In this document: in pieces, positions 12,821-15,330 of the stretch
Layout: every line of letters begins with the position of its first letter
Position numbering within the stretch: position 1 is the first letter of the stretch
From: Ruminococcus sp.
Lineage (GTDB): Bacteria; Bacillota; Clostridia; Oscillospirales; Acutalibacteraceae
Direction of reading: 5' to 3'
NCBI GenBank assembly: GCA_017411835.1
Contig: JAFQPG010000005.1
Coordinates: 52,774-116,773, forward strand
Length of the DNA: 64,000 bases
Translations under genes and position numbers: made by a program
Notes under the pieces: model-generated
Seen by the model: only the letters and a program-made list of their open reading frames with translations
Told to the model about the DNA's origin: nothing
The model's database searches: none

Positions 12821-12869
12821 TTATTTTGTGGTACAATATATGTACCCTCAGATAAAGGAGATATACAAT

Positions 12870-13499
12870 ATGCAGAACTTCACTTTAATTAAAAGATTTG
12901 CCTCACTATTATTAGCAATAATTCTTGTGTTATCCTGCACAGTTATTTTTGCCGGCTGTAATGATAATAAGCTTCCTGATGGTTTAGAGGTTTATAATTA
13001 TGATAAGGATGGACAGCCTACAGGTTATTATAAGAACGAATATGATGATGCAGGCAACTGTGTAAAGAACGAAAACTACAACTCTGAAGGTGAGTTGCTT
13101 GGTTATACTGTTAACGAGTATGACGAAAAAGGAAACAAAACAAAGAGCATCTACTACGATAAGGAAGGTCAGATTCAGGCACAGGCAAAGACTGAATATG
13201 ATGAGAATAACCGCATCATTAAGTACACTGACATTGATGCTGACAATGTAGTACAAAGCTACGTTGTTTACGAGTACAATGAGCTCGGTCTTGATAACAG
13301 AATTTATCGTTACGATGGCGATGGTACTTTGAAGTCATACACAGAGTACGAGTACGACGACAACAAGAACTGCACAAAAATGACAGAGTACACAGGCTCG
13401 GGTGAAATCAAGTATTACATAGTATATGAGCTCGACGAAAACGGCGAGGAGATTTCTTACCGTTATGATGCTGAAGGAAACCTCGTTTCACAAAACTGA
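12870..13499 (+). CDS. Lipoprotein made of ~24-aa YD/RHS-like beta-hairpin repeats
   Basis: RBS AAAGGAG before ATG 12870; lipobox FAGC; repeating (E)YD-x2-GN-x6-Y-x3-G units. Confidence 0.82.
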   Translation: MQNFTLIKRFASLLLAIILVLSCTVIFAGCNDNKLPDGLEVYNYDKDGQPTGYYKNEYDDAGNCVKNENYNSEGELLGYTVNEYDEKGNKTKSIYYDKEGQIQAQAKTEYDENNRIIKYTDIDADNVVQSYVVYEYNELGLDNRIYRYDGDGTLKSYTEYEYDDNKNCTKMTEYTGSGEIKYYIVYELDENGEEISYRYDAEGNLVSQN

Positions 13500-13545
13500 T
13501 AAAAAGCTAAAGGGCAGTCAAACGACTGCTTTTCATAAGGATGAT

Positions 13546-13576
13546 AAAAACCACGATGAATTTCATCGTGGTTTTT
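13546..13576 (+). terminator. Intrinsic terminator
   Basis: Perfect 15-bp inverted repeat AAAAACCACGATGAA-t-TTCATCGTGGTTTTT. Confidence 0.85.
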
Positions 13577-13669
13577 CTTGTGTTTATCTGATAGAACCAG
13601 CATTGCATTTGTATTTACAAATGCTTTTTTGGTGATACCCAAACCCTTTTACAATAAAGCAAAAAAGCA

Positions 13670-13879
13670 AGTTATATTCTGTGCTGACACACAGAGTGAT
13701 ATTTTCACTTTGTGAAAGTTATATTACTCCCTCTGGTTGTAGTGATATTTTATTAGCCCTAAAACTGTTCGTAGGACAATATCACTATGCGAAAGCATAA
13801 TATAACTGCGAAGCAATAAAACTCGCCAAATGTAATGTGGCAAATAAAACTGCGAAACTTCCTTATGAGAAGTCTCGCA
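13670..13879. repeat. Modular nested-palindrome element (REP/BIME-like or structured RNA)
   Basis: Four AGT(T/G)ATATT boxes followed by four complementary AAT(A)(T/A)(C/A)ACT boxes, each separated by a short hairpin. Confidence 0.75.
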
Positions 13880-13919
13880 AAGACTGCCCCTTTTTGTTGG
13901 TACTTATAAGTAAAAATAA

Positions 13920-13950: not shown

Positions 13951-15330
13951 TTATATGCCTAAAATTGATGTTGCTATTTCAAAGTAAATAAATACGCAAA
14001 GTGTATCAACGATGGTGGTGATAACAGGGCTTGCTACGACAGCAGGGTCGAAGCCGATTTTTTTAATCAGCATCGGCAACGCACAGCCCAAAAGCTTTGC
14101 AAAAAAGATAGTTAATATAAGGGTCAGCGATACAACAAGAGCAACGGGTATGGTGATGCTTTCGTTGTGTAGCATTAAGCCGTCTATAAGTAACATCTTA
14201 GCAAAGTTTGCAATAGCGAGCACAACACCGCACAAAAGCGATACACGCGATTCCTTGAACATTACTTTAAGTATATCCTTAAACTCAATCTCCTCAAGCG
14301 AGAGTGAACGGATAATCGTAACTGATGATTGAGCACCCGAGTTACCCGCAGTACCCATCAGCATAGGGATAAACGCGGTGAGTACGATACACGCATCAAG
14401 CTGTGATTCAAACGACGTGATAATCATACCGGTGAAGGTAGCAGAAATCATAAGTATCAAAAGCCAAGGAATACGGCTTTTGAAGATTTCAAACGCACCT
14501 AATTTGTCGTATGGTTTATCGGTTGTCGGCGTGATAGCCGCAACCTTCTGGATATCCTCAGTAGCCTCTTCTTCCATAACGTCGATAGCATCGTCGACGG
14601 TGACGATACCGACAAGACGGTTTTCTTTATCAACAACAGGAACAGCAAGGAAGTTGTACTTATTAAAAACCTGAACAACGTTTTCCTGGTCGTCCAGGGT
14701 GTTGACTGAGATGACGTTTGTTTCCATAAGGTCTTCGATAGTGTCGTCCTCGTCAGCAAGCAAAAGACTTTTGATGGTGACAATACCGATAAGTCTTGAC
14801 TGCTCGTCTGCAACGTAGCAGGTGTAGATAGTCTCTTTATCAATACCGGTACGTCTGATTCGTTTTATCGCTTCCTCGACCGTCATTTTCGGTCTAAGTC
14901 TGACAAACTCGGTTGTCATAATCGAGCCGGCACAGTCTTCAGGATATTTTAAGATTTCATTGATTTGTTTTCTGACGTCAGGGTCAGCCTGACGCAAAAT
15001 ACGCTTGACGACATTTGCAGGCATTTCCTCAATAATGTCAACGGCGTCGTCGACATACAGCTCGTCAATGACTTCTTTGAGCTCTGTATCAGAAAAGCCG
15101 TGAATTAAAAGCTCTTGAGTGTCCTCGTCCATTTCGACAAAAGCTTCGGCTGCAAGCTCTTTTGGTAAAAGTCTGAACAGCACCGCAGTTTTTTCGTCCT
15201 GAATGTCTTCAAACACACCGGCTATATCAACAGGGTTCATAGTTGAGAGTATGTCCCTTAATGTCGCGTATCTTTTATTTTCGAGCAATGTTACAATAGT
15301 CTCGAAAAGAGTGACTGTATTCCTTTCCAT
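13951..15330 (-). CDS. mgtE: Magnesium transporter MgtE
   Basis: MgtE N domain (MNPVDIA...), tandem CBS domains, RIPWLLILM, FIPMLMGTAGNSGAQS, DPAVVASPVITTIVD. Confidence 0.97.
   Translation of the reverse strand: MERNTVTLFETIVTLLENKRYATLRDILSTMNPVDIAGVFEDIQDEKTAVLFRLLPKELAAEAFVEMDEDTQELLIHGFSDTELKEVIDELYVDDAVDIIEEMPANVVKRILRQADPDVRKQINEILKYPEDCAGSIMTTEFVRLRPKMTVEEAIKRIRRTGIDKETIYTCYVADEQSRLIGIVTIKSLLLADEDDTIEDLMETNVISVNTLDDQENVVQVFNKYNFLAVPVVDKENRLVGIVTVDDAIDVMEEEATEDIQKVAAITPTTDKPYDKLGAFEIFKSRIPWLLILMISATFTGMIITSFESQLDACIVLTAFIPMLMGTAGNSGAQSSVTIIRSLSLEEIEFKDILKVMFKESRVSLLCGVVLAIANFAKMLLIDGLMLHNESITIPVALVVSLTLILTIFFAKLLGCALPMLIKKIGFDPAVVASPVITTIVDTLCVFIYFEIATSILGI

Follow-up and report, generated by a model that had tools for sequence, protein, structure and literature searches.

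An intervening-sequence-like element with Gut-1 arms in the loop of an intrinsic terminator: a probable gene-less copy of a dispersed element of gut Clostridia

Introduction

What kind of element is built of short repeated words and hairpins, and how does it come to lie in the narrow space between two genes? The question is raised by a locus of Ruminococcus sp. (GenBank assembly GCA_017411835.1), situated between an open reading frame (ORF) for an RHS-repeat protein and mgtE. The stretch analysed, referred to below as the window, comprises 64,000 nucleotides (positions 52774-116773 of contig C5, JAFQPG010000005.1) of a 1.72-Mb genome in 20 contigs, designated here G000; positions are those of the window unless a contig is named. 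An earlier reading of the letters alone (the sequence-only reading) had marked positions 13670-13879 as four boxes mirrored by four anti-boxes and spaced by mini-hairpins, and had suggested a repeat mobilised from elsewhere. The evidence presented below indicates that positions 13520-13881 probably represent a small DNA element dispersed in gut Clostridia, in a copy that is gene-less and non-autonomous. The element resembles the intervening sequences (IVS) of rRNA genes, and its arms are the Rfam motif Gut-1.

Results

The array lies in the loop of a host terminator

The flagged span (approximately 210 nt) contains eight 9-nt words within 182 nt, with hairpins between them; four plus-strand words (arm B) are followed by four reverse complements (arm A). 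The degenerate word AGTKWTATT occurs 16 times in the window, compared to 6.6 occurrences expected from shuffles, and eight of the 16 fall inside these 182 nt, with a Poisson probability of approximately 4e-19. All eight words were found at the coordinates given by the sequence-only reading, and the mini-hairpins that it named are present, P1, P2, P3, P4, P7 and P8 having been located. Compared to shuffled sequence, the fold of this core had a z-score of -3.75 on the plus strand and of -6.1 on the minus strand. While the array described in that reading is real, the true extent of the unit is larger, approximately 13520-13881, which adds two terminator-like hairpins and terminal inverted repeats.

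The array had been placed between two terminators; it actually lies inside one, positions 13509-13519 pairing across the element with positions 13882-13890. This split host terminator, the terminal inverted repeats and the PF05635-bearing parent form described below had all been overlooked. At the orthologous RHS-mgtE junction of two genomes of the same genus (G023 and G044), the terminator arms are unsplit and the element is lacking: the intact hairpin reads AAAAAAGGCAGTC-GTTT-GACTGCCTTTT. The element was absent from the orthologous junction in genomes G018, G021 and G009 too. Empty sites at this junction, which the sequence-only reading had suggested looking for under the name of a lipoprotein-mgtE junction, were thereby confirmed in related species, with the terminator intact in G023 and G044.

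The same arrangement was observed at other loci. The flanks of four other copies in G000 were joined and searched in ten related genomes; they were contiguous in three to five of these, with an intact hairpin at the exact junction, and the stems of the empty sites matched the split arms at three of the four loci. All five syntenic loci are thus empty in species of the same genus, with an intact terminator at the exact spot. The testable copies in G000 are bracketed by copy-specific inverted repeats, with an A-run before and a T-run after, and the same bracket was found, using a strict 9-mer seed, in 47 of 94 copies from G000 and other genomes, mostly 300-400 nt apart. When folded together with its host arms, the full element reached -138.7 kcal/mol (z = -11.1), and in this fold the paired host arms run on into the stem of the element's inverted repeats. 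Taken together, these results show that the element lies exactly in the loop of a pre-existing intrinsic terminator.

Two further observations concern the host terminator. The window contains a residual mini-hairpin, GCAGTC-AAAC-GACTGC, the loop of which is the inverse of the GTTT seen at the empty site of G023. A plus-strand gene of 56 aa has been called, in a public contig identical to the window, over the host terminator arm and the 3' extension of the element (13465-13635; L030, 4696-4866); this call is probably spurious, because it overlaps three terminator-like hairpins and has no Pfam match.

The window copy lacks a PF05635 gene carried by complete copies

A complete copy is present on contig C10 of G000, where TTGAAA-17-TATAAT, a ribosome-binding site and an ORF of 116 aa come after arm B. 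The product belongs to PF05635 (E = 8e-27) and TIGR02436, and matches PDB 2RLD at 4e-27. The window copy is 76% identical to the C10 copy through the arrays, and matches it again from the stop codon on (75% over 59 nt, E = 9e-7); between the two, approximately 415 nt of promoter and ORF are missing, and approximately 45 nt stand in their place. As the match extends to both sides of the missing promoter and ORF, the window copy is, judging from these alignments, an internal-deletion derivative of a form of approximately 0.7 kb whose only gene, with its promoter, encodes the 116-aa PF05635 protein. The gene was present, at +182 to +223 and in the same orientation, in five or six of the 99 copies from other genomes that had enough context, and the protein of these copies was always closest to that of C10.

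G000 contains three PF05635 genes, each of them preceded by its own convergent 4+4 array with a different word (Table 1); gene-less copies in this genome exist only for the C10 word, AGTGATATT. In a sample of 43 PF05635 genes (40 from relatives and the three of G000), arrays were found at most 220 nt upstream of about 20, and in at least nine cases, in G000 and seven relatives, a Gut-1 match lies directly upstream of the gene on the same strand. Protein clades share a word (GTGATAT, ATGAAGT/GTGAAGT, ATGAAAT, AGCTAAAT or AGTGAATA), with two array-less clades standing apart. All eight words of an element shift together between lineages, which would point to a common reader, most simply the encoded protein.

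The cassette with the AGCTAAAT word (C8:68150-69000) has flanking direct repeats of approximately 60 nt (ACAAACGAGGTAGCTAAAATATRATAGCAAAAACGTACTCTCAGCGCGCCATA...) and a duplicated upstream terminator. The cassette with the AATGATGTT word (C11:12400-13181) begins right after two tRNA genes and their terminator. At C10:131640-131800, the right end of the element, GGAGGAGAAGTAGTGG, appears to provide the next downstream ORF with its ribosome-binding site and GTG start.

Extent and anatomy of the element

The strand that bears the PF05635 gene in complete copies is taken as sense; in the window this is the minus strand. BLAST and an alignment of 14 copies from G000 show that the unit is asymmetric. 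It spans approximately 360 nt and comprises terminal inverted repeats, at least eight hairpins and eight words. Read 5' to 3' on the sense strand, it consists of the hairpin P1; four words AGTKATATT alternating with the hairpins P2, P3 and P4; a centre; arm B, in which four anti-words AATATCACT alternate with P6, P7 and P8; and a 3' extension of approximately 150 nt that differs between subfamilies. Across copies the centre comprises the hairpin P5, the partial word AGTTTT and then GGCGAATAA. P1 together with the U-rich first word resembles a terminator for minus-strand transcription.

In nine of ten copies, the element closes with 11-23 nt that repeat the 5' half of P1 in inverted orientation (shuffle p at most 0.008), the sequence being subfamily-specific; these are therefore terminal inverted repeats. 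In the window copy, CTTCTCATAAGGA on the P1 side stands against CTTTTCATAAGGA at the far end (shuffle p = 0 of 500). Two contigs from the metagenomes of other samples, both 100% identical to the window, end at 13787, just past the centre of the foldback and at the start of arm A. The features of the window copy and of its surroundings, as well as the words of the three gene-bearing cassettes, are listed in Table 1.

Table 1. Features of the element, its host terminator and flanking genes in the window, and words of the gene-bearing cassettes of G000
Feature	Position	Strand	Basis or remark
RHS-repeat protein ORF	12828-13499	+	Upstream neighbour of the element
Split host terminator, 5' arm AAAGGGCAGTC	13509-13519	+	Intrinsic terminator of the RHS-repeat gene; complementary to 13882-13892
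Subfamily-1 direct repeat RGCAGTC(N)TTT	13509-13529 and 13879-13895		At both element ends
Whole gene-less element, 362 nt	13520-13881	-	Homology extent to sister copies; length between split arms; empty site
Right terminal inverted repeat region	13520-13545	-	Sense reading ...ATCATCCTTATGAAAAGCAGTCGTTT
Bidirectional terminator-like hairpin AAAAACCACGATGAATTTCATCGTGGTTTTT	13546-13576		Part of the element; common to the C5:154-kb and C5:183-kb copies
Block matching the sequence right after the PF05635 stop codon (GGGTTTGGG...ACAAATGCAATGCTGGTT)	13592-13648	-	Match to G000:C10
Terminator-like hairpin, then T-run	13605-13624		Within the 13592-13648 block; terminator scan
Arm B: four plus-strand words, P8, P7, degenerate P6; sense anti-words AATATCACT	13670-13749	+	Gut-1 match
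Words AGTTATATT	13670, 13717	+	Arm B; sequence read directly
Hairpin P8 CTGTGCTGACACACAG	13679-13694		Arm B
Words AGTGATATT	13695, 13741	+	Arm B; sequence read directly
Hairpin P7 TTCACTTTGTGAA	13704-13716		Arm B
Hairpin P6, degenerate	13726-13740		Arm B
Centre: P5 GTCCTACGAAC (one mismatch in the window copy), partial word AGTTTT, GGCTAATAA	13750-13777	-	
Arm A: words AGTTTTATT (twice), AGTTATATT, AGTGATATT; hairpins P2, P3, P4	13778-13851	-	Gut-1 match; alignment; pair counts
Reverse-complement words	13778, 13799, 13815, 13843	-	Arm A; sequence read directly
Hairpin P4 ATGCGAAAGCAT	13787-13798		Arm A
Hairpin P3 GCGAAGC	13808-13814		Arm A
Hairpin P2 CGCCAAATGTAATGTGGCA	13824-13842		Arm A
Hairpin P1 GCGAAACTTCCTTATGAGAAGTCTCGC, long, terminal	13852-13878	-	5' half is the left terminal inverted repeat; terminator scan; covariation between subfamilies
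Split host terminator, 3' arm GACTGCCCC and T-run TTTTT	13882-13895	+	
MgtE ORF	13951-15330	-	Other flanking gene
Word AGTGATATT	C10 cassette		PF05635 gene
Word AATGATGTT	C11 cassette, after two tRNA genes		PF05635 gene
Word AGCTAAAT	C8 cassette		PF05635 gene

The arms belong to the Gut-1 family

In a permissive scan against Rfam, both arms matched Gut-1 (RF01706) over its full length: arm A with 42.8 bits (E = 1.8e-6; 13774-13852, minus strand) and arm B with 38.6 bits (E = 2.1e-5; 13669-13753, plus strand). Both scores fall short of the gathering score of Gut-1 (50 bits), which is exceeded by four sister copies of this genome (51.5-59.2 bits); G000 as a whole has 17 Gut-1 matches, many of them arranged as convergent pairs approximately 20 nt apart. 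The architecture of Gut-1, consisting of three hairpins with a conserved word between them and compensatory changes in the stems, is found here as well. On the strength of these model matches, the repeat family is Gut-1 and the window copy is a below-threshold member of it. The sequence-only reading had itself named a match to an already described Rfam family as a result that would speak against it; since both arms match Gut-1, novelty as an undescribed family is not supported.

Copy number, distribution and mobilisation

Approximately 14 loci were found in the 1.7-Mb genome, 13 as word clusters in a cluster scan and one (C8:50916) from the Rfam matches, most of them with the layout '++++----'; the earlier claim of a multi-copy, non-coding, non-autonomous element was thereby upheld. 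The identity between copies within the genome is 68-92%. Gut-1 matches were found in 17 of 41 related genomes, with 0-34 per genome, a distribution that is patchy even within the genus, and many matches lie at contig ends. Of these 17 genomes, 14 have PF05635, among them all nine in which at least four matches were found (odds ratio 6.5, p = 0.012).

The exact word-hairpin-word pattern was found in at least 120 stretches from metagenome-assembled genomes, labelled Acutalibacteraceae, Oscillospiraceae, Eubacteriales, Clostridia and Christensenellaceae; most of the sample names that state a source refer to ruminant guts. With regard to carriage by phages, no match was found in 50,697 INPHARED phage records, and only three IMG/VR contigs match the pattern. 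In other genomes, about 9% of the copies with the AGTGATATT word directly follow a tRNA gene, the identity of which varies. Orientation displayed no clear bias with respect either to GC skew (8 against 6) or to the flanking genes (26 co-directional, 18 convergent, 11 both).

Outside the window, at C5:154035-154583 and C5:182908-183434, two tandem pairs of the same subfamily lie in opposite orientation approximately 28 kb apart, with periods of 358 and 336 nt. An inversion between the two was considered and rejected, because the sequences flanking the 154-kb pair adjoin each other in related species. For the 183-kb pair, the sequences on its two sides lie there 13.5 kb from one another or on different contigs.

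The sequence-only reading had suggested a repetitive extragenic palindrome (REP) or bacterial interspersed mosaic element (BIME), mobilised by a REP-associated tyrosine transposase (RAYT) or an IS200-type Y1 (HUH) transposase encoded elsewhere. The element is indeed palindromic, intergenic, multi-copy and located between convergent genes, and G000 has one Y1_Tnp gene (C4:3013-3366). Contig C4, which bears this gene, has no copy of the array, however, and Y1_Tnp is absent from the element-rich genomes G027 (34 Gut-1 matches, 98% complete) and G036 (29 matches), as well as from G021 and G022; its association with the presence of Gut-1 was not significant (p = 0.10). A unit of approximately 360 nt with internal arrays is also unlike a REP of 20-40 nt, and the lack of an orientation bias with GC skew noted above speaks against this explanation too. 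Mobilisation of this kind is thus largely refuted, and we regard it as very improbable. Retro-mobility, or a role of the Avd-like protein in a diversity-generating retroelement (DGR), was likewise considered and rejected, no reverse transcriptase (RVT_1) having been found in G000 or in six other element-bearing genomes (G016, G017, G021, G022, G027 and G036).

Covariation, loops and the folded strand

In approximately 100 copies, the stems of P2-P8 contain about 2,280 Watson-Crick pairs compared to six G-T and five A-C, although each hairpin is represented by 50-69 distinct stem sequences. A comparison of G-U with A-C pairs gave no signal for either strand as the folded one, wobble being no commoner than random mismatches. 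In a MAFFT alignment of 22 sequences, every variable hairpin pair had changed on both sides, and covariation was above that of all 500 shuffles and of all slid controls; 28 of 47 RNAalifold pairs had compensatory changes. That the mini-hairpins covary, a check put forward in the sequence-only reading, was therefore borne out, 0 of 500 shuffles reaching the observed level.

The 'rod or cruciform' that the same reading had built on box-antibox pairing fared differently. Where the words vary, the mirror word is not compensated: at columns 4/188 three sequences were paired and 19 unpaired, and at columns 32/162 there were 11 of each. A rod of four-way junctions was accordingly rejected, in alignments of both 22 and 54 sequences. 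A different helix was found, in which word 1 and CGCC (the 5' arm of P2) pair with GGCG-AATAAAAT in the centre (GGCTAATAA in the window). It comprises 12 bp and is 98% paired in the 22 sequences, with columns 5/106 being UA in 10, AU in nine and CG in three.

The loops were strongly biased by strand. GNA or GNRA accounts for 57% of loops on the anti-word strand and for 0.3% on the word strand, in both arms, so that the two arms favour opposite strands. On the anti-word strand, the sequence of P3 is GCGAAGC or GCGTAGC in 96 of 107 copies. The DNA d(GCGAAGC) forms an exceptionally stable mini-hairpin, whereas a 2-bp stem is marginal in RNA.

These data bear on the possibility that each arm is a small structured RNA (sRNA), the element then being two convergent sRNA genes or one long foldback RNA; such an RNA could also act as a protein sponge, showing single-stranded words between its hairpins. 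The match of both arms to Gut-1, which Weinberg et al. 2010 (PMC2864571) graded as a likely non-coding RNA, suits this explanation, as do the very strong folding z-scores, the compensatory changes in 28 of 47 pairs and the GNRA loops, which are typical of RNA. It is opposed by the wobble count, G-T being no commoner than other mismatches among approximately 2,300 pairs, and by the favourable loops, which are on opposite strands of the two arms, so that no single transcript carries both. In addition, the 2-bp stem of P3 would be marginal as RNA, gene-less copies have lost the only promoter seen, the arrays are walled off by terminator-like hairpins on both sides, and the copies behave like insertions at five loci. 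We therefore consider an RNA function unlikely. The lack of wobble, the opposite loop strands, the lost promoter and the flanking terminators, all of them read from sequence, favour a structure at the DNA level, on both strands, over a single RNA.

In a further explanation, the word array would be a double-stranded operator or decoy, with the PF05635 protein as a DNA-binding autoregulator and the gene-less copies as leftover or titrating sites that are not mobile. In the cassettes C10, C11 and L046, the last anti-word and the -35 hexamer of the PF05635 promoter overlap, the words of arm B are more uniform than those of arm A (149 of 211 exact), and tRNA-adjacent copies are followed by promoter-like sequences and unrelated genes, all of which speak for it. 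Binding to duplex DNA, on the other hand, leaves unexplained why every spacer holds a perfect, covarying hairpin, why word spacing varies between 16 and 28 nt, why there are terminal inverted repeats, and why the copies are found in the loops of terminators which lack an element in related species. This explanation appears distinctly improbable. In the tRNA-adjacent copies (L039, L047, L041, L040 and C1:105555-105800 of G000), a promoter-like TGCTATACT or TATAAT comes after arm B; the unrelated genes that follow encode, for example, a membrane protein or an XRE-type helix-turn-helix protein, and not PF05635. The array may be a portable upstream module.

Discussion

A gene-less element in a terminator loop

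The results point to a likely identity for positions 13520-13881, that of a gene-less, non-autonomous copy of a small dispersed IVS-like DNA element of gut Clostridia with Gut-1 arms. The position in the terminator loop, the terminal inverted repeats that extend the host stem, the element's own terminator-like hairpins, the origin by deletion and the gene-specific words are what was observed. As for the way in which such an element might work, the words would be recognition sites for an oligomer of the cognate PF05635 protein, supplied to the window copy in trans from the C10 copy. The hairpins would act at the DNA level, single-stranded or extruded, on both strands and not as one RNA, and the element would spread into terminator loops without a Y1 transposase or a reverse transcriptase. 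The host may tolerate such an architecture, as a foldback with terminators of its own would still let the host genes terminate.

Several points weigh against this identity. The empty sites are known from other species (MgtE 87-89% identical) and not from strains, and the choice between gain and precise loss therefore rests on parsimony; no strain-level empty site was found, the three places read among 17 contigs with an identical MgtE all being occupied and 100% identical to the window. An identity of 68-92% between copies within the genome gives no sign of current activity. Most gene-bearing copies are without the split-terminator bracket, and there is no consistent target-site duplication: a direct repeat, RGCAGTC(N)TTT, was found in subfamily 1 only and none in subfamilies 2-4. 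This repeat, GGCAGTCTTT, is perfect (10/10) around one unit of the C5:183-kb tandem pair and 9/10 in the window copy. The element encodes neither a recombinase nor a transposase that could be recognised, the parent's only gene being that of PF05635/TIGR02436, and three genomes with one or two Gut-1 matches lack PF05635. Finally, co-descent alone could make the words track the protein clades, and GNRA loops are good in RNA as well.

A bolder extension of the same idea, which we think rather unlikely in its full form, is that the PF05635 'IVS proteins' confer specificity on a so far unrecognised class of selfish elements that have no transposase, and that this would unite Gut-1, the intervening sequences of 23S rRNA genes and the Avd-like proteins that are not part of DGRs. 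A pentameric ring of four-helix bundles would read a lineage-specific 9-nt word, presented four or five times in each arm by a ladder-like series of DNA mini-hairpins; it would join the inverted ends of the element, and would steer the cassette and its gene-less derivatives into single-stranded host hairpin loops. Here the targets would be intrinsic terminators; elsewhere, they would be helices 25 and 45 of 23S rRNA.

Rfam has listed Gut-1 since 2010 as an RNA whose function is unknown, and none has been assigned to PF05635/S23p proteins since 1993; here both are found in one element. While the family was already catalogued as Gut-1, the literature searched does not describe a terminator-lodged, IVS-like element derived from a PF05635 cassette: publications on PF05635, the IVS protein or Avd-like proteins made no mention of Gut-1 there, and those on Gut-1 made none of PF05635. 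If the link between protein and word is true, it would offer a testable account of inserts in the hairpin loops of rRNA genes and terminators, and the handles are at hand in a defined word, a cognate 116-aa protein, defined ends and defined empty targets, namely terminator loops. There are consequences for annotation too. Gut-1 matches in metagenomes are better read as arms of a repeat element than as independent sRNA genes; the repeat breaks short-read assemblies at its centre, as in the two contigs ending at 13787; and it attracts a short gene call that is probably spurious.

Comparison with known systems

As catalogued in Rfam (RF01706), Gut-1 is a stand-alone RNA of 77 nt of unknown function. 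Weinberg et al. 2010 (PMC2864571) knew it only from human-gut metagenomes, and their main text is silent beyond the rating cited above. The element shares with it the three hairpins, the conserved linker word of 7-9 nt between them, the end-to-end alignment of both window arms with the model, and a source in gut-associated uncultured bacteria. It differs in that the motif is here one arm of a convergent pair, within an element of approximately 360 nt that has terminal inverted repeats and is lodged in a terminator. The word is GUGAUAU instead of GUGAAAU, the stems are without G-U pairs, and the loop bias favours the strand opposite to the one modelled in Rfam.

The miniature inverted-repeat transposable elements (MITEs) and structured intergenic repeats of bacteria include Correia/NEMIS, RUP, BOX and ERIC as well as REP/BIME. 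Like these, the present element is small, non-coding, multi-copy, strongly folding, modular, located at gene ends and bounded by terminal inverted repeats. It also derives by internal deletion from a longer gene-bearing form, is patchily distributed between related genomes, and is present or absent at orthologous sites. It thus has most of the properties of a MITE; the parent form, however, encodes no known transposase but only a 116-aa four-helix-bundle protein, target duplication is not consistent, and the target is a hairpin loop and not a short sequence. Hairpin-forming DNA is also the target of IS1397 and ISKpn1 (IS3 family), which insert into the loops of REP palindromes, and of class C group II introns, whose homing sites are terminator stem-loops. 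A transposase, or a reverse transcriptase with a ribozyme, is encoded by those elements; neither is present in the element described here.

The PF05635 protein resembles the DGR accessory protein Avd (PDB 4DWL; PMC10053308), and both belong to the same family of four-helix-bundle folds; relatives are pentameric. G000 has no reverse transcriptase (template and variable repeats were not searched for), and the protein is therefore not working here as a DGR accessory factor. The S23p protein of Xanthomonas is a pentameric toroid, and rRNA insertions of the candidate phyla radiation (CPR) also carry the PF05635 domain.

Among described systems, the ORF-bearing intervening sequence of 23S rRNA genes comes closest. 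That of Coxiella burnetii (PMC4990558) is a selfish element of 428 nt in the loop of helix 45, which encodes an S23p (PF05635) protein; its bounding inverted repeats form a stem of 28 bp (-143 kcal/mol), tandem heptamers GACAGAT lie upstream of the ORF, and its origin and mobility are unexplained. The likeness to the intervening sequences of Coxiella and Leptospira is extensive: an insert of 0.4-0.7 kb takes the place of a host hairpin loop, its inverted repeats pair and extend the host stem (-139 kcal/mol here, compared to -143 in Coxiella), complete copies encode a PF05635 four-helix-bundle protein with short repeats upstream of the ORF, ORF-less versions exist, and function and mobility are unexplained in both. 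The differences are that the host hairpin is here the intrinsic terminator of a protein-coding or tRNA gene and not helix 25 or 45, that each genome has many dispersed copies, gene-less derivatives among them, and that the repeats form a convergent 4+4 array with mini-hairpins, which is probably not transcribed with the host RNA. The element is therefore IVS-like in its architecture, and not an IVS by location, since it lies downstream of a protein-coding gene.

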